Shown here in pieces: positions 577 through 63,913 of a stretch of DNA of 64,000 nt (positions are counted from its first letter, which is position 1; each line of letters begins with the position of its first letter). The position numbers were made by a program, and so were the translations under genes. The notes under the pieces were generated by a model, which worked only from the letters and a program-made list of their open reading frames with translations, had not been told where the DNA came from and did no database searches. The stretch is taken from positions 17,524-81,523 of the forward strand of contig JBDROJ010000019.1 of the NCBI GenBank assembly GCA_043810165.1, read 5' to 3'. The stretch comes from a bacterium (GTDB lineage: Bacteria > Patescibacteriota > Patescibacteriia > Magasanikbacterales > GWA2-37-8).

Positions 577-3099
577 ATGAATATCATTGAACGCTTTTCA
601 ACCCATCTGCGCGAAGCCATGACTCGTAGCATCACCATGGCTACCGAGCTAAATCAACCTCTGGTTCAGCCTATCCATCTTTTATTTACTTTATGTACTT
701 TAAAAGGATCTGTGGCCAGTGAAATTGCCAGCCGATTGCAAATAAACGACGAGATTATTGAACAAATGATCATTAAACTTCCATCTGAAACAAAAAAAAT
801 GCCGGGCCGAAAAAAAAGACAAATAGCCCAAGCTGAATTAAGCTCTCTATCTCCAAGCGCTAAACAAGCTCTTGAAAAATCTATAATGTACGCTCATCAA
901 CGCCAACATAATTATGTTGGCACCGAACACCTACTTCTAGCATTGATTGATTTAAAAGATAAACTAATCGGCCAAGTATTAAGCATGAGTGGAATAAATC
1001 CTGATGAAATAAAAAACCAACTGGATACTGTTTTAAATAATGCCACTCAATTTCCACAAGTAGCTGAATTATCTGAAACCATGAATAGGATGCAGGAAAG
1101 CCTTGGTGACCCTGTCATGAATACACCCTCAATGACCATGGATAATTCAAAATCAAAATCTCAACAATCTGCTTTGGATTTTTTTGCAACCAATCTGACC
1201 GATCCGGAAATTCAAAAAAATATTGACCCGGTTATCGGACGCAAAGATGAGATTGAACGCCTGACGCAGATACTCTGCCGGCGCACAAAAAACAATCCTG
1301 TACTATTAGGCGATCCCGGAGTTGGTAAAACCGCCATTGTAGAAGGATTGGCTAAAAAAATAAATGAAGGGAAAGTGCCTGGCATATTATTAAATAAAAA
1401 AATATATGCCCTGGATATGGGCATGTTAATTGCCGGCACGACCTTTCGCGGTGAATTTGAATCCCGCCTGCAACATATTATTGAAGATATCGCCAAAAAT
1501 CCAAACATTATTTTGTTTATTGATGAAATCCATAACATTGTTGGTGCTGGCTCAAATCAAGGCACCATGGACGCATCAAATATATTAAAACCTGTATTGG
1601 CGCGCGGACACATCCGATGTATCGGCGCTACCACTCCAACTGAATTTAAAAAATATATAGAAAACGACTCTGCCCTGGAACGCCGATTTCAACCTATTTA
1701 TGTCAAACAATCCAGCGTGGAGGACACTATCAAAATCCTCAAAGGGATAAAAATCAATTATGAAAAATACCACAATGTAAAAATTACTGATAAAGCCGTA
1801 AAAGCGGCCGCTTATTTGGCTGATAGATATATTACTGATAAATTATTGCCTGACAAAGCCATTGATCTGCTTGATGAAACAGCGGCCAGTAAAAAAATGG
1901 CCGGCAAAATTACTCCTCAACAGAGCAATCTCTTAAAATTAGAGCAAGAATTGGAAAAAACCACAGTAGCCAAAGAAAAAGCTACCTTTGATGATAATTT
2001 TCAACAAGCTGTTAAATTAAAAGCCCAAGAACACAAGTTGGCAAAACAAATCCAACAGCTACAAAACCAAAATGCCAAAAAACAATTAACCAAAAAACCA
2101 ATTGGTTCAATTACTAATAAGGATGTGCTTAAACAATTAAGCAAGGTAATTAACACTCCGGTAGATGAATTAATTTTAGATAAAAAAGAAAAATTAAAAA
2201 ACCTGGAAACAGAATTAAAAAAATCAATTATAGGCCAAGATCGAACTATCACCCAGGTAAGTCAGACAATCCGCCAAGCTCAACTGCAAATTTCCAATCC
2301 TGAACGGCCCATGGCTTCTTTTATGTTTGTTGGTGAAAGCGGAATGGGCAAAACCGAGCTAGCCAAAACTCTAAGCCAAGTACTGTATCCCAGCCAAGAT
2401 GCGCTCATTGCATTAAACATGAGTGAATTTAATGAAAGTCATAGCGTATCTAAATTGTTGGGCTCACCTGCCGGATATATTGGCTACAAAGAAAGTAATC
2501 AATTCACTGACAAGATAAAAATGAATCCTTATTGTGTGATTCTACTTGATGAAATAGACAAAGCCCATGCTGATGTAACCAAGCTATTATTACAAATTCT
2601 AGAAAATGGAGAAATTACTGACTCAACGGGCAGGAAAATTTCTTTAAAACATGCTATAATAATACTAACCACTACTGCCGGTGCCCAACAGGCAAAAAAA
2701 GGTGGTATTGGTTTTGGTGATACAAAAAATCACCAAGCTGAAATTGAAAAAAAGGTGATTGAACATCTAAAAGAATACTTCAGTATAGAGATGATAAACC
2801 GAGTAGATAAAATATGTTTGCTTAATACTTTGCAAACCCAGGAATTGGCTAAAATCGCCCAGTTAGAAATCAAGATGTTTAATGATCAGCTAAAAAAATA
2901 CAAAACTAAAATTCACGCCGAAGATCAAACCATTGAATGGTTGATCAAACAGATATCTCAATCAGATCTGGATGCCAGAACCGTGCGTGGCCATGTCAGA
3001 CAAGAAGTGGAAAGATTAATGTCAGATTTATTGTTAAATGAAAAAGTAAAACCCAAATATCACCTAGAAGCAATTGGCAACCAACTGCTAATAAAATGA
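577..3099 (+). CDS. clpC: Clp/Hsp100 AAA+ chaperone ATPase (ClpC/ClpB-like), two AAA modules
   Basis: Clp_N-like N-terminus. First Walker A is GDPGVGKTA and the second is VGESGMGKTELAKTL. A short coiled-coil middle region and a length of 840 aa fit ClpC better than ClpB. Confidence 0.85.
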   Translation: MNIIERFSTHLREAMTRSITMATELNQPLVQPIHLLFTLCTLKGSVASEIASRLQINDEIIEQMIIKLPSETKKMPGRKKRQIAQAELSSLSPSAKQALEKSIMYAHQRQHNYVGTEHLLLALIDLKDKLIGQVLSMSGINPDEIKNQLDTVLNNATQFPQVAELSETMNRMQESLGDPVMNTPSMTMDNSKSKSQQSALDFFATNLTDPEIQKNIDPVIGRKDEIERLTQILCRRTKNNPVLLGDPGVGKTAIVEGLAKKINEGKVPGILLNKKIYALDMGMLIAGTTFRGEFESRLQHIIEDIAKNPNIILFIDEIHNIVGAGSNQGTMDASNILKPVLARGHIRCIGATTPTEFKKYIENDSALERRFQPIYVKQSSVEDTIKILKGIKINYEKYHNVKITDKAVKAAAYLADRYITDKLLPDKAIDLLDETAASKKMAGKITPQQSNLLKLEQELEKTTVAKEKATFDDNFQQAVKLKAQEHKLAKQIQQLQNQNAKKQLTKKPIGSITNKDVLKQLSKVINTPVDELILDKKEKLKNLETELKKSIIGQDRTITQVSQTIRQAQLQISNPERPMASFMFVGESGMGKTELAKTLSQVLYPSQDALIALNMSEFNESHSVSKLLGSPAGYIGYKESNQFTDKIKMNPYCVILLDEIDKAHADVTKLLLQILENGEITDSTGRKISLKHAIIILTTTAGAQQAKKGGIGFGDTKNHQAEIEKKVIEHLKEYFSIEMINRVDKICLLNTLQTQELAKIAQLEIKMFNDQLKKYKTKIHAEDQTIEWLIKQISQSDLDARTVRGHVRQEVERLMSDLLLNEKVKPKYHLEAIGNQLLIK

Positions 3100-3108
3100 T
3101 AATTTCCT

Positions 3109-4668
3109 ATGCCTGACCAGAATACCACAGACAATAACGAAAACCTGGACGACCAACTTTTATATACACCACCTGATTCTGAAGACCAACAAGATCAAGA
3201 CACAGAAGATCAAAATCAAACCAGCTCCAAGCCTGGTAAAGTTAGTAAACTTCCAGACAAATCAGTAGATCTGGGTGATATAAGTTCCGGACAAAAAAAA
3301 CAAATTGATAGTGAAATTAAAATACCACTGGATGATTTAGAAATACAAGGGAAATTGCCGGCCAGGGCACCTGAAGAATTAGGTGAAGATGAACCACCAG
3401 ATGAGCCAGGAAAACAAAATCAAACAAAACCAGAACCCGAGCAAAACGAACAGGATCAAAATTTGCCCGCTAAAAAACCGGATCATAAAAAATCGGAAAA
3501 GCAAAAATCTGCAGATAAACCTTCAAAATCAGATCAATCCAAAGATCAACAACAAGAAGAAAAACCCGAGCAAGAGCCTGAAGAATCAGAACAAGACGAG
3601 TCAGAAGAGGAAGAAGGAGAAGAACAACCCGATGATGGAGAAGCCGAGCCAAGCGCAGAGCAAGGCCAAGGACAACCAGGAGAACAAAGCGAGCAAGGCC
3701 AAGAAGATGAGCAGGAACCCGAACAAGAAGAAGACGAAGAATCAGATCAAGACGAGCCAGAACAAGATCAGCCAACTGAAGAACCTCCAACCCAACCGGA
3801 TGAGCAACTGCCAAAACCACCAGAACCACATAAGCCAAAACCAAAATCCGAGCCAGAATCTGATTCAAAAAAAGAAGATTTAGAAGATAAAAAGAAAGAA
3901 TTGGAAGAAGATCTAGAAAAAGGAGACCAAGAAAAAAAAGAAGATCGTCAACAACCCGAAACCAAACCAGAAGAAAAATCCAAACCTGTTGAAAAAAAAG
4001 AACCACCCAAGGCCAAACCAAAAAAAAAGAAAAAGCCCAGTACCACCCCACAGCAACTAGATCCAAAACAGCAACAAGATGCACAAACTCAAATGCAACA
4101 ACAGCAACAAGCTGAACGAATGAAACAACAAAAAGAACAAGATGAGGATCAACAACAAAAATCTCAACAACCCGAGCAAGGAGAATATGAGGGACAAGAA
4201 TCCGAACAAGAAGAACAAGAGCAAGGAGAGCAAGAACAAGAAGGAGAGGCAGAAGCACAGGCTGAACAAGCCGAACAAGCTCAAAAATCACTTAAGGAAA
4301 TCAATCAACAAATATTAACAAAAGAAAAACAAATCAAACAGTTAAAAAAATCGATCGCACCAGCGCAAAGAAAAATATGGTTAAAAACATGGGCGCTGAG
4401 AGGTATGAAATTTTGGTATTTCCTAGTTATAATGGCTGAAATTATCCTTGCTATTTCAATTATAGGCTGGGCAGTAATAGAATACGTAGAAAAATACAGG
4501 CAAAAATTAAGTAAACAAATTAAAAAAATTAAAAAAGAATTAAAAGCAGAACAGAAAGCTATTCAAAACACAGTAGACAAGATAAAAGGCTTGCAAAGAG
4601 AACTAAATTTATTATACAGAGAAAAACTTGAAGCTCAAGGCATGTTGATTCCTAATGCACGCATTTAA
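3109..4668 (+). CDS. Highly acidic low-complexity (E/D/Q/K/P-rich) protein with a C-terminal transmembrane helix and coiled coil
   Basis: 519-aa ORF starting 10 nt after the clpC stop. It is extremely compositionally biased (EQ/ED repeats, a KKKKKKP stretch). The C-terminus WYFLVIMAEIILAISIIGWAV is hydrophobic and is followed by a coiled-coil segment. Confidence 0.6.
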   Translation: MPDQNTTDNNENLDDQLLYTPPDSEDQQDQDTEDQNQTSSKPGKVSKLPDKSVDLGDISSGQKKQIDSEIKIPLDDLEIQGKLPARAPEELGEDEPPDEPGKQNQTKPEPEQNEQDQNLPAKKPDHKKSEKQKSADKPSKSDQSKDQQQEEKPEQEPEESEQDESEEEEGEEQPDDGEAEPSAEQGQGQPGEQSEQGQEDEQEPEQEEDEESDQDEPEQDQPTEEPPTQPDEQLPKPPEPHKPKPKSEPESDSKKEDLEDKKKELEEDLEKGDQEKKEDRQQPETKPEEKSKPVEKKEPPKAKPKKKKKPSTTPQQLDPKQQQDAQTQMQQQQQAERMKQQKEQDEDQQQKSQQPEQGEYEGQESEQEEQEQGEQEQEGEAEAQAEQAEQAQKSLKEINQQILTKEKQIKQLKKSIAPAQRKIWLKTWALRGMKFWYFLVIMAEIILAISIIGWAVIEYVEKYRQKLSKQIKKIKKELKAEQKAIQNTVDKIKGLQRELNLLYREKLEAQGMLIPNARI

Positions 4669-4690
4669 CAAAAAAAATAATAACTAATAT

Positions 4691-5926
4691 TTGCGTATGC
4701 TAAATACCAAAAGAACTATTTTAATTATTCTGCTTTTATTGGCAACTATTTTAATAGGCCTAGCCATATACTTTTTTCTTTTCAAACAACAATCCCCTTT
4801 TGACTTTTTTACTAATGATCAGACAACCACAACAACAGTTGAAACTTTGCCCGGATCAGGACAACGAGTGGTAACATCAACAGACGGGACAATAATCGGA
4901 GCAGAAACTCTGCCAACTGCGCAAATAACGCAACAACCTGTCCAACCCAGCTATTTTCAACCCAAAGCCGTGGAAAAAATAACTTCAGATTATGCGATCT
5001 TTCCTTCTCTAAATCAAGACGGCGGATATCGCTACCACAATGCATCAGATGGTAAATTCTATAGCATCACAGATAGTGGAGAAAGTAAATTACTAGCAGA
5101 CAAAGTTTTTTATAATGTAAGTAAAGTAACTTGGGCAGAAACCAAAGACAAGGCCGTAATTGAATATCCAGATGATTCAAAAATTATCTATGATTTTGAA
5201 AACAACAAGCAAGTAAGCCTGCCAAAGCATTGGGAAGATTTTTCCTTTTCACCCGAAGGCAGTGAAATCGTGGCCAAAAGTTTGGGTATTTCCACGGAAA
5301 ACCGATGGCTGATTACCATGAATGATGACGGAACCGGTTTAAAAACCATTGAACCCATGGGAAACAACGCTGATTATGTAACCGTGGATTGGTCGCCTAG
5401 CAGGCAAGTCATAGCATTTTCCAACACAGGCGAAGCCATTGGCGCTGATCGCACTGAAATACTACTGGTTGGTTTAAATAAAGAAAATTTCAAGGCTCTC
5501 ACCATTGAAGGCAATGGTTTTGAATCAGAATGGTCCCCTACCGGCAAAAAATTATTATACAGTGCTTACAGCGCCCGCAGTGAATACAAGCCCGAGTTAT
5601 GGATATCAGATGCTTATGGCGACAGTGTTAACGAAAATCGCCAAATGCTTAATATCAACACATGGCCTGACAAATGCTCTTTTGGCGATGATAACACTAT
5701 TTATTGTGCTGTACCCAGAAGCTTACCCGAAGGTGCAGGCATGTCCAAAGCCATCGCCAATAGCATATATGACGATCTATATAAAATAGATCTAAGCACC
5801 GGCTTAAAAACTCCAATTTCATTGGATGATAATTATACTATTCAGAATATCTCTTTTGATAAAAAAAATAACAAACTGCTTTTCACTGATATTTATGATT
5901 CAGGAGTGTTTGAAGTAAGCTTATAA
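4691..5926 (+). CDS. TolB-like / PD40 beta-propeller repeat protein with an N-terminal membrane anchor
   Basis: N-terminal hydrophobic segment ILIILLLLATILIGLAIYFFLF. Repeated DWSP / EWSPTGKKLLYSA motifs are typical of TolB/PD40 propeller blades. Confidence 0.6.
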   Translation: MRMLNTKRTILIILLLLATILIGLAIYFFLFKQQSPFDFFTNDQTTTTTVETLPGSGQRVVTSTDGTIIGAETLPTAQITQQPVQPSYFQPKAVEKITSDYAIFPSLNQDGGYRYHNASDGKFYSITDSGESKLLADKVFYNVSKVTWAETKDKAVIEYPDDSKIIYDFENNKQVSLPKHWEDFSFSPEGSEIVAKSLGISTENRWLITMNDDGTGLKTIEPMGNNADYVTVDWSPSRQVIAFSNTGEAIGADRTEILLVGLNKENFKALTIEGNGFESEWSPTGKKLLYSAYSARSEYKPELWISDAYGDSVNENRQMLNINTWPDKCSFGDDNTIYCAVPRSLPEGAGMSKAIANSIYDDLYKIDLSTGLKTPISLDDNYTIQNISFDKKNNKLLFTDIYDSGVFEVSL

Positions 5927-19889: not shown

Positions 19890-20558
19890 ATGCTAACACA
19901 AAAAAGAAAAAAAGTCTTGTTTGTAGCTATATTCGCGGTCATCGGTTTTGTGGCCATGCAGTTTAAGTTCACTGAAATCGTGGGTTCAAGCCTGCGTTTC
20001 AGCCTATTTGATTTTTATGGACCGATTGTGGCCGGATTTATTGGATCAGTTTGGGGATTGGCCACTGTAGTAATTATGCAAATCATAAATTGGGCATGGC
20101 ATGGATTTGCCATGGATGCAGGAACCATAATTCGCTTCTTTCCAATGTTATTGGCCGTCCTATACTTTGCTAAAAAATCAAAATGGATTTTGGTGGTACC
20201 GGTAATTGCCATGATATCTTTTTGGATTCACCCTGAAGGCAGGCAGGCATGGTATTATGCCCTGTATTGGCTCATACCTATAATCATGTATTTCTGGCAC
20301 GATAAATTTATCTTTGCCCGCGCTCTTGGCACCACTTTTACAGCTCATAGTGTCGGTGGCATGCTCTGGGTTTGGATTTTTAATTTGAAAGCTTCTGTTT
20401 GGATCGGCCTGATACCTATTACTTTCATGGAACGCTGTTTGATGGCCGTTGGTATTATTATTACATATATTGCCTTCAACTATATTTTAAGTCTGGTGGG
20501 CAAGAAAATAAAACTACCAAACTTCGTAAAACTAAATGAAAAATACTCGGCTAAATAA
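19890..20558 (+). CDS. Hypothetical polytopic membrane protein (5-6 TM; possibly an ECF-transporter S-component-like)
   Basis: 222 aa made up of hydrophobic helices. No soluble domain. Confidence 0.35.
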   Translation: MLTQKRKKVLFVAIFAVIGFVAMQFKFTEIVGSSLRFSLFDFYGPIVAGFIGSVWGLATVVIMQIINWAWHGFAMDAGTIIRFFPMLLAVLYFAKKSKWILVVPVIAMISFWIHPEGRQAWYYALYWLIPIIMYFWHDKFIFARALGTTFTAHSVGGMLWVWIFNLKASVWIGLIPITFMERCLMAVGIIITYIAFNYILSLVGKKIKLPNFVKLNEKYSAK

Positions 20559-20567
20559 TCAGTTTGA

Positions 20568-20752
20568 TCTGTCATTGTGAGGAGTGTAGTGTTACTGTCA
20601 TTGCGAGCGTGGCATTTCTGTCATTGCGAGCGTGGCATTTCTGTCATTGCGAGCGTAAGCGAAGCAATCTCGTCATCATAGAACCAACGGGATTGCTTCG
20701 TCGCTCCACTCCTCGCAATGACAGTGAATCGCTCGCAATGACAAACAAAAAT
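20568..20752. repeat. Nested palindromic repeat element, copy B (three tandem left half-sites)
   Basis: gtcattgtgaggag...ctgtcattgcgagcgtggcatttctgtcattgcgagcgtggcatttctgtcattgcgagcgtaagcgaagcaatctcg...cgggattgcttcg...cctcgcaatgacag...gctcgcaatgacaaac. The 64-aa ORF 20564..20758 lies inside it and is spurious. Confidence 0.8.
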
Positions 20753-20754
20753 TT

Positions 20755-22068
20755 ATGAACTACACTCAAGCCTACAATTACTTAATATCCTTAAATAATC
20801 TCCCTCGCAATGAATACATGAAGGATCCGCGACACTGTAGCTGGTATCTAAAACGGCTACAGTTTTTTTTGAATATTATTGGCAATCCAGAAAAAAAAGT
20901 CCCTCATTATATTCACGTCACCGGCACAAGTGGCAAAGGTTCGGTTTGTTTATTGCTTGATTCAATACTGCGAGCCAATGGACAAAAAGTCGGCGTTTTA
21001 ACTTCTCCGCATCCGTCAGTTATTACTGAAAGATGGGATATAAACGGCAAGCCAATGAGCCAAAAACAATTCAGCCAAAATATCAGCCAATTAAAATCCA
21101 AACTTGATCAGTATGTTAGAAAGACTCCGTATGACATGCTTTCCTACGGGGAATTTTCCACGGCCATGGCGCTATATCACTTTGCCAAGCAAAAAGTGGA
21201 TTGGGCCGTATTGGAAGTGGGCTGTGGAGGACGTTATGATTCTACAAATATAATCCCGCATAAAGACACAGCCGTGATAACCAATATAGGATTGGATCAC
21301 AAGGGCATAATCGGCAATACCAAGACAAAGATCGCCTACGAAAAATCCGGAATCATTAAAAAAGGATGTAAAGTCTTTACAATGGAAAAAAATAAAAAGA
21401 TTATAGAAGTCATAAAAAAAGAAAATAAAAAAAATAAAACTGAATTTAATATAATCAAGAATACAAGCAAAATTTTACAACAAGATCTGGACGGCATTAA
21501 ATTTAATCATGCAGGTGAAAACTATTTTCTCCCGATTCTGGGAAAACATCAAATAGACAACGCTGTTCTGGCCATTGAAATCGCTCTCTCTTTAAAAATT
21601 CCTGTAAACAATATTAAACAAGGATTAAAAAAAGTTAAGATCCCTGTATGCATGGAAATCGTTTCAAAAAAACCATTGATTATTTTGGACGGAGGACATA
21701 ACCCGGAAAAAATCAAAACTACTGTGGCCACAGCAAAGTTTATAAACAAGCCGATACATCTGATAGTTGGCTTCTCTTACAACAAACAATGGCTCAACAT
21801 GATTAAACAGCTATCCGAATTGGATCCACTGTCCATAGCCTGCACGCGCTTTACTGAAAATTATTTCCGTAAAGCAACCAATCCAAAAGACATAGCTGAT
21901 GAATTTAAAAAATATCTACCTAAAATAAAAACAGAGGTCTTTCTAGACCCAAAGGACGCGCTTGCGTGGTCAAAAAAACAAATAGAAACCAACGATTTGA
22001 TTCTAACAACTGGTTCAGTATTTTTAGGCGGAGAATTGCGAAAACTTTTTAAAAACACTCTGTGTTGA
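20755..22068 (+). CDS. folC: Mur-ligase-family folylpolyglutamate synthase / dihydrofolate synthase-like protein
   Basis: P-loop VTGTSGKGSV, NIGLDHKG motif, and Mur ligase middle and C-terminal domains. Confidence 0.7.
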   Translation: MNYTQAYNYLISLNNLPRNEYMKDPRHCSWYLKRLQFFLNIIGNPEKKVPHYIHVTGTSGKGSVCLLLDSILRANGQKVGVLTSPHPSVITERWDINGKPMSQKQFSQNISQLKSKLDQYVRKTPYDMLSYGEFSTAMALYHFAKQKVDWAVLEVGCGGRYDSTNIIPHKDTAVITNIGLDHKGIIGNTKTKIAYEKSGIIKKGCKVFTMEKNKKIIEVIKKENKKNKTEFNIIKNTSKILQQDLDGIKFNHAGENYFLPILGKHQIDNAVLAIEIALSLKIPVNNIKQGLKKVKIPVCMEIVSKKPLIILDGGHNPEKIKTTVATAKFINKPIHLIVGFSYNKQWLNMIKQLSELDPLSIACTRFTENYFRKATNPKDIADEFKKYLPKIKTEVFLDPKDALAWSKKQIETNDLILTTGSVFLGGELRKLFKNTLC

Positions 22069-24819: not shown

Positions 24820-25496
24820 CTACTTCCTGCTACTGGACTTGGTGCGACCACGGGAAGACGGCTTCTTCGGCTCCTTGGGTAGAGCAACCACGTCGTCGCC
24901 ATCCTCGTCGCCCTCCATGTAATGCTTGGCGTAATGCTTGGCCGTCTCACAGAACATCTCCTCGATGGGCTCGGCCAGGGCGTCCATCATCTTGCCCATG
25001 TTGAAGTCCAACGAGTGCTTGGCACCGGCCAGGAGCTGATCCTGCAGTGGAAGCTTCTTCTCGCTGTGCATGGACCATGCCGTACCCGCGCCAAGGATGA
25101 GCACGTTGGCCAAGGTCCGCTCCACCGCTCGCAAGGTCTGGCTGGAGTCGATGAACTCCTCGGGGTAAGGCAGGTTGTACTTCTTACACACTGCCCGCAG
25201 ACCGCGCACGAACGGGCTGGTGACCACACGGTTACCCAGAGCCATCTTGCCACCCTTGGCAAACGAACCGCCGATGATCTCGCCCATCTTTCTCAGGAAC
25301 CTGGGTTTCTCGTTCTCTTCCATCTTCTTCTTCTCGTTTTTAGGGTTGATATCTTCGTCGTACTCACTGTCTTCAGAGTCAAACCAGCCAATCTCTTCAC
25401 CACACAACAGGCACTTCTCAGCGAATTCCTCCACACTTGCTTCACAGGCCGGACAAACCCAATCAGATATTTCTTCTGTTCCTGTGTTAACTTCCA
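24820..25496 (-). CDS. Zinc-ribbon protein of unknown function, encoded in a GC-rich island
   Basis: A perfect SD (AGGAGG, reverse complement of 25501-25509) lies 6 nt upstream of the ATG at 25496. The N-terminus is MEVNTGTEEISDWVCPACEASVEEFAEKCLLCGEE (a C4 ribbon). GC content is ~53% against ~33% in the surroundings. I recognise no family motif. Confidence 0.55.
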
Positions 25497-41963: not shown

Positions 41964-42245
41964 AAAAGTAATTAATAAAACATCGTGGTATTTATCGCGA
42001 TGTTTTTGATTTTAAAAAAATATTTTTGTCACAACAAACTAAAACTGTGCATAACTTTGCTTGACGCTATTCTCTTTTTGTTAAAAAAGTTTTATAATAT
42101 AGGCAGGTCGAAAAGATTTTTTACATACATGCTTGTCATGTAAAAAGTTTACCAAACAAAAATTTTTCGCCGCGGCGGGAAAAAATTTTTTTATATTCTA
42201 ATAAGTCCTTCTTCTAAAAGGACAGATGGAAGGGAGGTGTATACT

Positions 42246-42392
42246 ATGCCAGCTAAAAAGAAAGTAGCTAAGAAAAAAGTTGCTAAAAAGAAAGTAGCTA
42301 AGAAAAAAGTTGCTAAAAAGAAAGTAGCTAAGAAAAAAGTTGCTAAAAAGAAAGTAGCTAAGAAAAAAGTTGCTAAAAAGAAGAAGAAATAA
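42246..42392 (+). CDS. 48-aa lysine-rich tandem-repeat peptide MPA(KKKVA)9KKKKK, histone-H1-tail-like / nucleoid-associated candidate
   Basis: ATG at 42246 is preceded by GGAAGGGAGG 7 nt upstream. Four copies of a 30-nt unit GCTAAAAAGAAAGTAGCTAAGAAAAAAGTT follow. The TAA stop is at 42390 and is followed by a strong terminator. Not in the ORF track because it is under 60 aa. Confidence 0.6.
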   Translation: MPAKKKVAKKKVAKKKVAKKKVAKKKVAKKKVAKKKVAKKKVAKKKKK

Positions 42393-58751: not shown

Positions 58752-58876
58752 GACCATTGTCCTGGCGCCGGCTTACTTTTGCTTTACAGCTATCATCAGC
58801 GTTGGGAAGCTTAACTACCGTGTTCGGGATGGGAACGGGTGTAACCTTCTCACTTGAGGCACCAAGACAATGGTCT
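58752..58876 (-). rRNA. rrf: 5S ribosomal RNA
   Basis: Helix I inverted ends agaccattgtc...gacaatggtct. The minus-strand sense contains CCCGTTCCCATCCCGAACACGGTAGTTAAGC, the 5S loop B/C consensus. Confidence 0.8.
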
Positions 58877-59212
58877 CTTGTTTTTTCCAGGGTATTGTTT
58901 TTAAGCACTGCTTAGTGTTTTTGTCGTATGCTCGGCTTATTAGTACGCCTCGGCTTAACTCTTTACAGAGCTTAGACCTGGCGCCTATCAACCTCGTAGT
59001 CTACAAGGAGCCTATAACGAATATTAATCTTGAGGACGGCTTCACGCTTAGATGCTTTCAGCGTTTATCCGCGCCAAACGTAGCTACCCAGCAATGCCCT
59101 TGGTAGGACAACTGGTACACTAGAGGTTCGTCCACTCCGGTCCTCTCGTACTAGGAGCAGGTCCTCTCAATATTCAACGCCCACAGCGGATAGGAGACCG
59201 AACTGTCTCACG

Positions 59213-59974
59213 CATGTTCTTCCATTATTACTAATGGCACAGACTATACCTTCATCCTCTCCAACAACAATGGAGGAGGAGCTGACGTGTGATAAGTGAT
59301 ATAAGTTATTTTTTGAACACCTATCTCATCCTTCTGTCTGCCAGAAACAGACATCCAGAATCAGTCGTTACGGGGGTATAATTTATGTTGTCTTAAAAAA
59401 TTCTTCAAAACATCAGAGGTATTAGTTCTCTTTTTGGAATAATTTAATTCCTTGAACTTATCAACCAATTCAGCTGCCTTAACAAATTTTTCTATGGAAA
59501 ATTTTCCTTGTAGAATTTTATTTATTTGAAAAGCAACTAAAACATGTTCTTTTTTGAGAATTATATAAGGCTTCAATAATTTCAAAATCTTAATTACCGA
59601 CTTAAAACCAACTATGGTATATTCGGTCATATCATCATTGCGATCTCTGATATAACCTACTCCTGCAAATGTTTCTTTAAGCCATTCTAAATGACTCTTT
59701 ATGACTCTTTTTATCAGTCTTCTGGTAGAAAACTACGCTGGCACGGATCTGAAATCCATACACATAGTCTTTTCTACGGACTAATTGGAACATTATACAG
59801 CCATCTCCATCTAGAAATCCTGCGATATAAGATTTTGTTGTGGACGAAATTATTGACATAAATCAACCTTCCCACGGCATTGCCCTCTAAAAAGTTCGGT
59901 AAATTTAGTAGGGTTTCACCGTTATGAGTCAGATTTATTGTATCATATTTCTACGATAGAACGCAATGTAGTTT
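59213..59974 (-). mobile_element. Intron (probably group I) in 23S rRNA at the E. coli ~2593 (I-CreI-type) site, carrying a LAGLIDADG homing endonuclease ORF
   Basis: The conserved 23S run ...CAGAACGT|CGTGAGACAGTT... is split. Plus 59201-59212 ends ctgtctcacg and the exon resumes at 59975 acgttctgaaccc. R/S-like elements (CCGTAACGACTGA, GGTATAGTCTG) sit in the 3' part. Confidence 0.7.
59361..59859 (-). pseudogene. LAGLIDADG homing endonuclease (single-motif, I-CreI-like) disrupted by a 10-bp tandem duplication
   Basis: IAGFLDGDGC motif in ORF 59677..59859. A second ORF 59361..59630 continues the protein. Removing one copy of the tandem atgactcttt|atgactcttt (59691-59710) fuses them into one ~163-aa frame (...KKSHLEWLKETFAGVGYIRDRNDDMTEYTIVGF...). 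Confidence 0.7.
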
Positions 59975-60007
<33 letters not shown>

Positions 60008-60020
60008 TGGCGAACAGCCA

Positions 60021-60080
<60 letters not shown>

Positions 60081-61374
60081 CGCCGTCTATATGGACTATC
60101 GGGCGAGATCAGCCTGTTATCCCCGGAGTAGCTTTTATCCGTTGATCTTCCACCTTCCTATGTAGGGTGGTCGGTTCACTAACTTCTGGTTTCCCAACTG
60201 CTCGGGTTGTAGCCCTTGCAGTAAAGCTGGCTTTTGCGTTTGCACGTCCAGCTCGGTTTCCATCCGAGCTAAGCCAACCTTTGTAAACGCCTCCGTTACT
60301 TTTTGGGAGGCATCCGCCCCAGACAAACTACCCACCAGACACTGTCTCCCCTTCCTGATTCAAGGAAGGAAATTAGGTACAAAACTAAACAAGGGTGGTA
60401 TCTCACTGGCGATCCGAAGATCTTCCACCTATACTGAACATGTTTAGCCTTATACCAATATCAAGTTGTAGTAAAGCTTCACGGGGTCTTTTCGTCCGGC
60501 TGTGGGTAACCGGCATCTTTACCGGTCTTGCAATTTCACCGAGTCCCTCGTTGAGACAGTCTCCCCATCGTTACGCCATTCGTGCGGGTCGGAACTCACC
60601 CGACAAGGAATTTCGCTACCTTAGGACGATTATAGTTATCGCCGGCGTTCATCAGCGCTTCAGTTTCCTGCTTTGTCATAAAGACTAACAAGTCGCCTTA
60701 ACGTTCTGACACTGGCCAGGCGTCGCCCCCTATACTTCAGCTTACGCTTTTGCAGGGAGCTGTGTTTTTGATAAACAGTCGCAGGGAGTCTTTTGTTGTA
60801 GCCCCGATTTGAGTCGGGGCGGGCCTTATCCCGAAGTTACGGCCGCTGTTTTGCCGAGTTCCTAAACGAGGGTTATCTCGTACGCCTTGGTCTTCTCGAC
60901 CTACCTACCTGTGTTGGTTTACGGTACGGTTACCTATAGCCTAGCGGTTTCTAGCTTTTCTAGGCATTCTCTTACCTCAAATTGACTCTACCCGAAGGCT
61001 TTGTCTCCATCTTGCGATACGTGTATAACCGAAACACGCTTAAAGATTAAAAATGCGCACTAAAAACCAAACTATAAGCAGTGCAGGAATATTAACCTGC
61101 TGATCCATCGGTTACGCCTTTCGGCCTGGCCTTAGGACCGACTAACCCTGGGATGATTCACGTTGCCCAGGAAACCTTGGGTTTTCGGCGGGCAGGATTC
61201 TCACCTGCCTTTTTGTTACTTATGCCTGCATACTCGCTTCCTAACGCTCCACCAGTCCTCGCAGATCCGGCTTCAACGCAGATAGGAATGTTCCTCTACC
61301 ACGCCTCGACTAAGTCGAGACATTCGCAGCTTCGGTACCATGTTTAGCCCCGTTACATTCTCGGCGCTAAAACT

Positions 61375-61441
<67 letters not shown>

Positions 61442-62012
61442 GAGAATTAAAACCACCTTGCGTGCACTTAACATGGATTTTGGGACCTTAGCTAGCGATC
61501 TGGGCTGTTTCCCTTTTGACTATGAAGCTTAGCCCTCACAGTCTGACTCCTAAGTTTTTGACTACCGGCATTCGGAGTTTGATTGAGGCGGGTATCCCGA
61601 AGGACCCCGACCTCATCCAGTGCTCTACCACCGGCAGGAACACTTAAGGCTAGCCCTAAAGCTATTTCGAGGAAAACCAGCTATTACCGAGTTCGATTGG
61701 AATTTCTCCGCTATCCACAGCTCATCCCCGCGTGTTGAACGGCGCGTGGGTTCGGACCTCCCCCCGATTTTCATCGGGGCTCATCCTGGCCATGGATTGC
61801 TCACTCGGTTTCGGGTCGTGTAACAGAAACTATTGACGCTGGTTAAAACTCGCTTTCGCTGTGCCTACGGACCATAGGCCCTTAAGCAAGCTACTGCTAC
61901 ACACTCGCAGGCTCATTCTTCAATAGGAATACTATCATCCCGACTAAGTCGGGACTTTAGCTCTTTGTAAGCATATGGTTTCAGATACTATTTCATCGCC
62001 CTCAACGGGCTA

Positions 62013-62049
<37 letters not shown>

Positions 62050-63097
62050 ATCACCAAAAGTATTTAGCCTTAGACCATAGTCGGCCTAGATTCAGACAGG
62101 ATTTCACGAGTCCCGCCCTACTCAAGGACACTAACCATGATTGCAATTATTCTTTTCGCGTACGGGGCTTTCACCCTCTTTGACGGCTCTTTCCATAGCC
62201 TTCTGCTAAAAATAATGCTCTCACCTGATTTAACAGAAAATCAGCGTTAGGCCTTACAACACCGTATAAAAAACGGTCTGTTCCTTTAAACTACAGTTCA
62301 AAATCAATTCGAAAATCAATCAATCACCATAGAAACTTTTATACGGTTTGGGCTGTTCCCTTTTCGCTCGCCGCTACTTAGGGAATCTCTTCGATTTCTT
62401 TTCCTCTGGGTACTGAGATGTTTCACTTCCCCAGGTCTTCTTTATATACCTATGTATTCAGTATATAATGCCGCGTAAAACGCAGCGGGTTCCCCCATTC
62501 GGACATTCCCGGATCAAAGGTTGCTTGCCACCTCCCCGAGACTTTTCGCAGGCTGCCACGTCCTTCTTCGTCTTTTGGTGTCTAGGCATCCACCATATGC
62601 TCTTAGTAAAATTGCATACGACAAAAACACTAAATTGTGCTTTTGTTTCATCCTGTACCGAGCCTATTGAAGACAAGCTCCGGTCAGGACGATTTATTTT
62701 GCCTGAATCAAACGGACGAAGTCTACGCTTGCTTGCGCTTGACTTATATTTTGATTCAGGACCCTGGTTGAGTTGTCAAAGTACTTTCAAGTCCTATTCA
62801 TGAACTACCATCTTGACAATGCATGTAAAAGACTGGAAAAAAAGAACCGCTAGTAAGCGGCCTTTAAAACAATAACTGTTTTGAGTTTAACCGCTTGGAT
62901 GAATTGAGTAAAAAATTTGTACTTGTTTTAACATTTTGTTTGCAAGTTATTTTACCCAGAGGTCCAAACTGTTTAAGCTCTGATTGGACGTGGTGTCCAG
63001 ATGCATATCGGGACAATTTCACGTGCTCATAATAATACATTAAAACAAAAAACTTGTCAAGCTGACAAGTTTGCACAGGTGTGGATAAATAATGGAG

Positions 63098-63367
63098 CTA
63101 TAATACGGCTAAACAAGCACCATGTTCTTCAATAATTTCTTGCACCAAACCATGATTTTTTAGATAGCCTTTTACTTTTTCCCCCAACCTACCAGTACCT
63201 CCACCATAAACTATCCTAATTACTTTTTCATTATTTTTGTCATGGTGGTCGAATAAAAAAATCTCTAAACGATCAAGAGCGTCACTTGGATACAAACCGT
63301 GTAGATCCAAAATCGGAAGATCATCGCTTAGTTGAGCGGCAAATATTTTGGCGTCATGATTATTCAT
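63098..63367 (-). CDS. Smr-domain protein
   Basis: LDLHGLYPSDALDRL...IVYGGGTGRL resembles the Smr (MutS2 C-terminal) domain LDLHG...HGkGtG pattern. Confidence 0.5.
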   Translation of the reverse strand: MNNHDAKIFAAQLSDDLPILDLHGLYPSDALDRLEIFLFDHHDKNNEKVIRIVYGGGTGRLGEKVKGYLKNHGLVQEIIEEHGACLAVL

Positions 63368-63812
63368 GATATCCTAGTCTTTTTTTAATCTTTTCCAAAA
63401 AACTTCTAATTTTTGTTTTGGCCATCTCGTTCATATTATCTTCCAAATTATAATGACTGCGGGATATCAATTCTTCCACCAAGACTTCTCTTATGCCTCT
63501 TAATATATGCTCGGGAAAATTAAGCAGATCAGCTGGTTCTGGTCCATTTAGTACTAACTCAACTATCCTCTGTTTGACGATATTAGATGCATCTTGACTA
63601 CTACTATATTGCTTTTCATAACCAGGCTCTGCTTCCAAGGTTTTTTCATCTGTAAATTCTGACTCCACATCTTCTGTGGCTCTGCTCAATAAGTTACTTA
63701 ATGAAACCGCGTTTAGTTCTACGGTTTTACTACAATCTCGAGATCTAGGCGATTTTTGATTTTCTGCCTCTCCAAAACCGCTAGAGATTGATGTTTTTTT
63801 ATCAGCCGACAT
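63360..63812 (-). CDS. Hypothetical protein
   Basis: 150-aa ORF overlapping the Smr gene start by 8 nt. No recognisable motif. Confidence 0.35.
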   Translation of the reverse strand: MSADKKTSISSGFGEAENQKSPRSRDCSKTVELNAVSLSNLLSRATEDVESEFTDEKTLEAEPGYEKQYSSSQDASNIVKQRIVELVLNGPEPADLLNFPEHILRGIREVLVEELISRSHYNLEDNMNEMAKTKIRSFLEKIKKRLGYHE

Positions 63813-63831
63813 ATTGTTTTAGAATTAATTG

Positions 63832-63913
63832 TGCTGGGGAGAGGACTCGAACCTCCACGCCCGAAGGCAATAGCTCCTAAGGCTACCGCGGCTACCAATT
63901 ACGCCACCCCAGC
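63832..63913 (-). tRNA. tRNA-Leu, anticodon TAG (type II)
   Basis: GCTGGGG/CCCCAGC acceptor, D-arm GCGTAATTGGTAGCCGC, anticodon loop CTTAGGA, long variable arm, T-arm GGAGGTTCGAGTCCTCT. Confidence 0.6.

Follow-up and report, generated by a model that had tools for sequence, protein, structure and literature searches.

Insertions interrupt the 23S rRNA genes of 82% of CPR bacteria (PMC11270868). Those at position 2593, described as 23IS12 by Tsurumaki et al. (2024, PMC11270868) and first noted by an earlier groundwater-metagenome study cited there, for the most part encode LAGLIDADG_1 proteins, and transcripts are reported to lose insertions of this sort (PMC11270868). In the cyanobacteria Synechococcus sp. 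C9, S. lividus C1 and Thermosynechococcus elongatus, the L2593 site is occupied by introns with a P7.1/P7.2 extension, a short P2 and a short P5; the same work summarises a homing cycle of gain, degeneration and loss (Haugen et al., 2007, PMC1995217). The family of L2593 introns and endonucleases is thus already described from CPR bacteria, cyanobacteria and green-algal chloroplasts, and the intron analysed here adds a member to it rather than constituting a new kind of element. We take the cycle of gain, degeneration and loss to be the Goddard and Burt model; selfish elements of this type ordinarily pass through a stage with a broken endonuclease gene. Our reading of the present locus, which we consider probable, is that of a mobile L2593 group I intron in which the ribozyme still splices and the endonuclease gene has recently been frameshifted.

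The intron lies in a 64-kb stretch of DNA, referred to here as the window, from a metagenome-assembled genome of Patescibacteria/CPR whose closest named relatives are Magasanikbacteria. The 23S exons of the window are 82-89% identical to Patescibacteria loci, and, after one identical protein from a metagenome-assembled genome, the next matches of its TopA are 73-76% identical and include Candidatus Magasanikbacteria and other Patescibacteria. The window is gene-dense, with a G+C content of ~38%. Its 23S rRNA gene occupies 62616..58932 on the minus strand (Rfam LSU_rRNA_bacteria, 2194 bits) and is followed, after the 3′ exon, by the 5S rRNA gene at 58866..58760 (Rfam). Alignment to the Rfam LSU model is unbroken to ...GCUGGGUUCAGAACGU and resumes at ACAGUUCGGUC, leaving 768 unaligned nucleotides vs. 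6 model positions between ...GGGUUCAGAACGU and (CGUGAG)ACAGUUCGG. Direct reading of the sequence placed the borders such that the insert measures 762 nt (59213..59974, minus strand), begins with AAACUAC (AAACUACAUUGCG) and ends in ...GAACAUG, flanked by the exon ends GAACGU and CGUGAGACAG. The 5′ exon (59975..62616, minus strand) ends in ...GGGUUCAGAACGU, which corresponds to E. coli U2593 and was aligned to model position 2619, and the 3′ exon (58932..59212, minus strand; Rfam) starts with CGUGAGACAGUUCGG. In rrlH of E. coli MG1655, the identical junction AGAACGT|CGTGAGACAG occurs after nt 2593. Judged by sequence, the insertion site is L2593, that is, the I-CreI site; the first-pass annotation had proposed that the 23S exon is interrupted after GAACGT at an I-CreI-type site near E. 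coli 2593 by about 760 nt, and both site and length hold. The intron-less form of the L2593 site reads CAGAACGTCGTGAGACAGTT. Without the insert the 23S rRNA measures 2923 nt, and therefore the 762-nt element appears to be the sole large insertion in the gene. The insert explains the 762-nt excess in the 23S gene as well as two short LAGLIDADG "genes" called inside it, which is mainly of value for annotation and quality control.

Relatives of the endonuclease were found to be encoded at 80 loci in a scan of one genome per species. At 63 of these 80 loci, the gene lies in an insert of 700-836 nt with the identical exon junction and with ends of the form AAAnnACAUUGC...CAUG, and every one of the 63 homologous introns ends in G. 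The window intron runs from A 59974, its first nucleotide, to an omega-G at 59213. Hosts of the homologous introns are mostly Patescibacteria, together with Omnitrophota, Thermosynechococcus and metagenome-assembled genomes labelled Gammaproteobacteria or Planctomycetia; Portnoybacteria, Komeilibacteria, and Magasanikbacteria are represented among the 80 loci. For comparative analysis, the window intron was aligned with 44 homologues (45 introns in all), and a smaller alignment was made with the seven nearest introns.

The LAGLIDADG gene within the intron is in two pieces on the minus strand. The N-terminal fragment (59677..59859) encodes 60 amino acids, including the motif IAGFLDGDGC, and ends at a premature stop resulting from a frameshift. 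The C-terminal part lies at 59361..59732, with a frame that is open from 59732 to a TGA at 59363-59361 and whose first ATG, at 59630, defines an 89-aa ORF (59361..59630). These two ORFs, their single LAGLIDADG motif and their orientation with the rRNA were as given in the first-pass annotation. That annotation had also predicted that deletion of one copy of a 10-bp repeat would restore a continuous reading frame of 163 aa. Removal of one copy did yield a single frame, of 489 nt, although the encoded protein has 162 aa. The repaired protein matches Pfam LAGLIDADG_1 (E = 4e-11) and, among PDB entries, I-CvuI (1.8e-21), I-MsoI (8e-19) and I-CreI (~1e-17), the three enzymes characterised for the L2593 site, in keeping with the proposal of an I-CreI-sized LAGLIDADG endonuclease. 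Homologues in a large protein collection numbered 2354, the best of which are 161-162 aa long and 70-81% identical at 100% coverage, the named ones being from Patescibacteria/Parcubacteria. The repaired frame is colinear with more than 100 intact homologues, its junction (...QKTDKKSH|LEWLK...) is colinear with 25 of 25 aligned homologues, and residues are kept at all 37 invariant columns. Among the invariant residues present in the repaired protein are D19, Q46, and K99, which align with I-CreI D20, Q47, and K98 and which presumably have the catalytic roles of their I-CreI equivalents. Of these, K99 lies downstream of the frameshift.

The ORF break coincides with a perfect 10-bp tandem duplication, as had been noticed in the first reading of the locus and was recovered by TRF at 59691..59710: two copies of ATGACTCTTT on the plus strand, or AAAGAGTCAT on the coding strand. 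It breaks the frame after codon 53, such that translation ends at codon 60 with a stop at codon 61, and the endonuclease gene as it stands reads as a pseudogene. The extra 10 nt (columns 305-314 of the 45-intron alignment) are absent from all 44 aligned relatives and likewise from the seven nearest introns. The comparison with orthologous introns that had been suggested at the outset thus identifies them as an insertion unique to the window intron among the 45. Within the 64-kb window, this is the sole perfect tandem duplication of at least 10 bp in a coding region with a length that is not a multiple of three; other perfect tandem duplications (12 bp, 23 bp, and 4 x 30 bp) are in-frame or intergenic. 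Assuming uniform composition, 64 kb should contain ~0.06 perfect 10-mer duplications. An origin of the repeat as a transposon-excision footprint (target-site duplication) was considered and set aside, supporting features being absent.

Beyond the frameshift, neither fragment of the gene contains further stops or indels. The dN/dS (Nei-Gojobori) of the repaired ORF vs. its two nearest intact relatives is 0.09-0.10, as compared with 0.14 between the intact genes. Since invariant residues are kept and dN/dS is ~0.1, the break is either recent or unreal, and the lesion would accordingly be young relative to the divergence from the 81%-identical relatives, if it exists at all. We favour the former: a gene undamaged apart from one lesion points to a recent event, and the frameshift is probably both real and recent. 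The first-pass annotation had likewise called the endonuclease recently broken by the duplication, and the single lesion, the dN/dS of ~0.1 and the otherwise undamaged gene agree with it. Broken copies also occur among relatives: L011 has lost 1 nt and contains an in-frame TAG, and L071 contains a TAA.

The alternative, of which the first-pass annotation had already named one form (assembly error), is that the dominant population lacks the duplication and has an intact, active endonuclease, the extra copy being a rare variant or an artefact of assembly or consensus; we consider it unlikely. The source is a metagenome-assembled contig, and an ORF devoid of other decay, with its invariant residues kept and a dN/dS of ~0.1, is just what would be expected of an intact gene. 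Scans of metagenome contigs gave zero matches with the duplication region, a gap of 0-10 nt being allowed, and zero matches with the strain-specific P7.1 hairpin, and exact-protein look-ups with the 89-aa fragment, the PFK protein and TopA found no independent assembly. However, a perfect 10-bp tandem duplication is homopolymer-independent and atypical of sequencing or assembly error, and a structure of 20 nt, being below the usual k-mer length of assemblers, as a rule needs support from reads to appear in a contig. The ORFs of the window are long and uninterrupted, with no appearance of an indel-prone assembly, and the other perfect tandem duplications in the window are natural. Finally, the broken homologues L011 and L071 indicate that decay of this endonuclease gene is common. 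On balance, these observations argue for a real lesion.

A second alternative accepts the duplication and holds that the gene functions nonetheless, by +1 ribosomal frameshifting between 59732 and 59677, by complementation between the two pieces or by reversible loss of a repeat copy. The downstream frame is open for 14 codons before the duplication, so that a +1 shift there would produce a near-normal protein, and short tandem repeats can revert by slippage. Nevertheless, a recognised +1 shift signal was not seen in the overlap, nothing similar occurs in any of the 44 aligned relatives, and the Met that opens the 89-aa ORF is internal, with no Shine-Dalgarno-like purine run evident upstream by eye. 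To our knowledge, LAGLIDADG folds do not reassemble from such fragments. We therefore regard a functional gene as very improbable. Frameshifting of the -1 type at AAAAAG was ruled out as a candidate, since a +1 shift is required. The narrower idea that the 10-bp repeat acts as a reversible slippage switch, in which loss of one copy restores the frame precisely, is likewise very improbable. If it were true, a host with a single rRNA operon could silence a potentially toxic endonuclease in the majority of its cells, and the few revertants would make the enzyme needed for horizontal spread; in a related version, +1 frameshifting within the 14-codon overlap would supply the enzyme at a low level.

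A recently frameshifted gene, as we prefer to read it, would be carried by a ribozyme that is still complete, and for this the fold of the intron has to be considered. At the gathering threshold, Rfam recovered only rRNAs and tRNAs in the window and matched no intron family. The group I model that had been recommended as a check (Intron_gpI, RF00028) does match the window intron, at 24.1 bits (E = 0.0016; 59221-59358), but this is below the gathering score of 50, as is a second match in the window of 13.5 bits (59604-59984). Relatives score 22-46.6 bits, all below 50, with E-values down to 5e-9 and matches that span whole introns. The gathering score of RF00028 is a curator's threshold and no biological criterion, and the model copes badly with the P7.1/P7.2 extension and with an ORF of 500 nt in P6. 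Since matches were weak or absent, the fold was examined by comparative analysis. The structure was drawn for the window intron by eye and by folding, and was then counted on the 45-intron alignment; as controls, the 3′ partners were slid by 1-3 columns and 500 shuffles were made. Among the 72 proposed pairs, 91.3% of cells are standard-paired vs. 38-44% in the slid control, in which a structure derived from the window sequence is favoured, mainly in the percentage paired; compensatory changes are less sensitive to this. Changes on both sides were seen in 45 of the 72 pairs, the covariation score was 0.338 vs. ~0.075 when slid, and none of the 500 shuffles reached the observed values. From these data the insert (59213..59974, minus strand) can be assigned to the L2593 family of group I introns with a P7.1/P7.2 extension. 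The group I core suspected at first reading is thereby borne out, with a group I architecture that covaries strongly across the 45 introns. The exact subgroup of this architecture is, as we assume, IA3.

All elements of the structure are on the minus strand. In P1 (59959..59980), the exon sequence GAACGU (59980-59975) is paired with GCGUUC (59964-59959), the guide within the intron, and all 45 introns have a U·G wobble where the 5′ splice site lies. P2 is a hairpin (UAUCGUA-GAAA-UAUGAUA, 59941..59958) that is 99% paired and has compensatory changes in all seven of its pairs. The 5′ strand of P3, CUGAC (59928..59932), pairs with GUCAG at 59286-59282; it is 100% paired, with three double-change pairs, and P3 crosses P7 to form the pseudoknot typical of group I introns. 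P4 (ACGGUG/UGCCGU) encloses P5/P5a (CCCU...AGGG) at 59874..59922; the two are 99% and 96% paired, respectively, with a conserved CGAAC in the loop. The 5′ strand of P6/P6a (GGG-AA-GGU-UGAUUUAUG, 59857..59873) pairs with 59372-59387 near the end of the ORF, where the 3′ side reads CAUAAAUUA-U-ACC-CCC (59387-59372). P6 is 91% paired, and P6a 70-73% in a less reliable region of the alignment. The 3′ strand of P6 (ACCCCC), J6/7 and the 5′ strand of P7 (A-C-GACUG) follow one another at 59362..59377, in the last codons of the gene.

P7 pairs A-(C)-GACUG with UAGUC-U and is 98% paired. Its closing pair (columns 685/856) is GC in 25 introns and AU in 20, with no mismatches among the 45, and the next four pairs (G·C, A·U, C·G, and U·A) are invariant. 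All 45 introns have the G·C pair at columns 687/855, beside which the nucleotide at column 686 is bulged; arguing from the Tetrahymena intron, we take this pair and its bulge to be the guanosine-binding site. The P7.1/P7.2 region (59291..59361) separates the 5′ strand of P7 from the 3′ strand of P3; within it, P7.1 is a hairpin at about 59329-59360 from single-sequence folds, and P7.2 is a hairpin formed by GAUAGGUG (59325-59318) and CACUUAUC (59298-59291), with compensatory changes. P8 (UCCU-C-CUCCA ... UGGAG-AGGA, 59255..59280) has double changes in eight of nine pairs. It is followed by J8/7 and the P7 3′ strand, UGAAGGUAUAGUCU (the "S" element, 59241..59254; also aligned by Rfam), the columns of which are invariant or nearly so, with GAAG(G/A)UAUAGUC nearly invariant across the 45 introns. 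P9 (CCAUUA-GUAA-UAAUGG, 59222..59237) is 98% paired with five double-change pairs. No P10 pairing of the 3′ exon with the guide region was evident by eye. A defective P7 had also been suspected, in the form of a noncoding GUUCAAAAAAUAACUUAU stretch without complementarity to UAUAGUC. This was rejected because the alignment gives ACGACU, in the last codons of the ORF, as the P7 5′ strand; the GUUCA stretch (GUUCAAAAAAUAAC) is only the loop of P7.2. The R- and S-like elements named in the first-pass annotation are thus both present, with R being the P7 5′ strand within the last codons of the ORF and outside the noncoding tail.

Another feature of the intron is the extent to which gene and ribozyme share nucleotides. 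The whole ORF sits in an extended P6 loop. Its start codon (ATG, 59859-59857) and a Shine-Dalgarno-like GGAAGG fall within the 5′ strand of P6/P6a, and its last codons (..H K L Y P R N D stop, or ...CCC CGU AAC GAC UGA) form the P6 3′ strand, J6/7 and the P7 5′ strand, such that the stop codon is inside P7. The near-invariance of YPRND in the proteins is plausibly due to these codons doubling as P6/P7 strands of the ribozyme. Similarly, changes between the codon variants AAC GAC and GAG ACU are matched by changes in the P7 3′ strand, plausibly because the end of the ORF overlaps P7. In the L2593 family, the ribozyme thus shares nucleotides of its helices P6 and P7 with the start region of the endonuclease and with its last five codons.

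The window intron has a standard pair at all 72 counted positions and possesses every nucleotide that is invariant in the 45-intron alignment. The ribozyme appears to be without sign of decay, and the earlier view that its core is retained stands, with zero core defects found relative to relatives with intact genes. That the insert is no self-splicing group I intron at all, and is instead an RNase-excised intervening sequence that leaves a fragmented rRNA or a dead, retained element, has the missing Rfam match at gathering threshold in its favour and a precedent in Simkania, as far as the title of a reference cited in PMC11270868 reports an unspliced 23S group I intron there, but it is scarcely tenable when all core helices have compensatory changes, J8/7, P7, the U·G pair and the omega-G are conserved, the Rfam group I model matches relatives with E-values as low as 5e-9, and a 762-nt insert left at a site adjoining the peptidyl-transferase centre would be harmful (an argument made in PMC11270868).

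Taken together, a still-splicing intron with a recently broken endonuclease gene would work as follows. Because the group I core is complete (P1 U·G, P3/P7, P4-P6, P8, P9, and the terminal G), the intron should still excise itself from the pre-rRNA, leaving a normal 23S rRNA. The 10-bp duplication of AAAGAGTCAT after codon 53 would shift the frame and end translation at codon 60. The resulting 60-aa product would keep the LAGLIDADG helix and lack ~100 residues, including K99, the equivalent of I-CreI Lys98, and would presumably fail to assemble into an I-CreI-type homodimer able to cleave alleles that lack the intron. Loss of endonuclease activity can be safely inferred from these features. 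On this reading, the frameshift would be the first step of homing-endonuclease degeneration after fixation of the intron.

Among the described systems, the insertion 23IS12 of CPR bacteria (PMC11270868) resembles the window intron in host group, 23S position, group-I-like sequence and a single-domain LAGLIDADG_1 protein. The relatives that were retrieved are mostly intact, whereas the endonuclease gene in the window is frameshifted by the 10-bp duplication. The cyanobacterial L2593 introns (PMC1995217) share the site and a similar length, at 744-748 nt vs. 752 nt for the repaired window intron. In them, too, P2 and P5 are short, the P7.1/P7.2 extension is ~65 nt long, and the LAGLIDADG ORF, with its single motif, reaches from a peripheral loop into the core. 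Two Thermosynechococcus loci from our scan (L074 and L076) can be aligned with the full length of the window intron. Differences lie in the protein identity of ~48%, in the phylum, and in the cyanobacterial endonuclease genes being full length.

In the green-algal systems, comprising the Cr.LSU intron of the Chlamydomonas reinhardtii chloroplast with I-CreI and the introns of I-MsoI and I-CvuI, the target site (...AACGU|CGUGAGACAG) is the one found here. The enzymes are of the same homodimer type, with a single LAGLIDADG motif and ~160 aa, and the equivalents of their catalytic Asp, Gln, and Lys are kept in the repaired protein. The ORF of Cr.LSU is, as we assume, also located in a P6 loop. 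Unlike these introns, the one in the window has a bacterial host and only modest protein similarity to them (E = 1e-17 to 1e-21), and, as distinct from the Cr.LSU/I-CreI system, its ORF runs into P6′ and P7 and its gene is inactivated. With respect to the homing cycle, the comparison concerns one sequence, and fixation and the absence of intron-less alleles are features of the model. Within that frame, the locus resembles the degeneration step, in that a disabling endonuclease mutation accompanies an intact ribozyme and other members of the family (L011 and L071) carry stops. The window intron would then provide one dated example of the earliest decay of a homing endonuclease, a single lesion inside an intact ribozyme.

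Disabled endonuclease genes were also found in two further members of the intron family. The ORF in the L011 intron (CAYJXK010000010.1) carries an in-frame TAG together with a 1-nt deletion, and that in the L071 intron (DDHN01000006.1) is interrupted by an in-frame TAA. Despite these lesions, the ribozyme portions of both introns retain good alignment. When the 45 introns (the window's and 44 relatives) were aligned as DNA in alignment A2, a CGAAC motif in the terminal loop of P5 was found to be nearly invariant (columns 97-101; L5 region at 59883-59913 of the window), while the enclosing stem is variable. The motif may form a tertiary contact.

Near-identical intron/endonuclease elements at the L2593 site (loci L009, L011, L013, L016, and L017, among others) occur across MAGs with unlike labels, including Rikenella, Gammaproteobacteria, Planctomycetia, Pseudomonadales, Clostridia, and even Promethearchaeota. 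An identical 740-nt intron is common to L015, L016, and L017, which are labeled Saccharibacteria, Planctomycetia, and Pseudomonadales. The occurrence of near-identical or identical introns under such distant taxon labels suggests either that contaminating rRNA contigs were binned into these MAGs or that the elements spread horizontally very recently. A separate anomaly was met in a RefSeq record, NZ_AP027616.1 (L084), deposited as the 2911-bp "plasmid pLR-72_4" of E. coli strain LR-72. Its content is one 23S rRNA gene and nothing else, and the sequence around position 2593 is not E. coli-like. The record has the appearance of contamination or of faulty assembly.

The window is enriched in perfect short tandem duplications; 11 with a length of 8 bp or more were counted, vs. 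~1.4 in shuffled sequences. Tandem repetition takes several forms, including a perfect 23-bp duplication (CTGTCATTGCGAGCGTGGCATTT x 2; 20595-20640) in the gap between an ORF ending at 20558 and the next ORF, which starts at 20755, an in-frame 12-bp duplication (24919-24942), and a 30-bp unit present in four perfect tandem copies (42252-42371). The four copies are housed within a 51-aa ORF on the + strand (42237-42392) whose product, a putative small basic protein, is a repeat of extreme lysine content (MYTMPAKKKVAKKKVAKKKV...KKKKK).

The rRNA locus in the window (58760-63913) consists of 23S and 5S genes only. Upstream of the 23S gene lie a 150-aa ORF (63360-63812) and a tRNA-Leu (63831-63913), with neither a 16S gene nor spacer tRNAs in that part of the locus; thus, the 16S gene appears to be unlinked to the 23S-5S pair, or at minimum more than 1.4 kb distant. 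Among relatives represented by a long contig, the closest is L081, whose 23S gene (ENA ERZ27293400 k141_464357, 2678-5510) contains three LAGLIDADG ORFs, two of the LAGLIDADG_1 type and one of the LAGLIDADG_2 type. This number therefore implies at least three endonuclease-bearing insertions in the 23S gene of L081, vs. one in that of the window.
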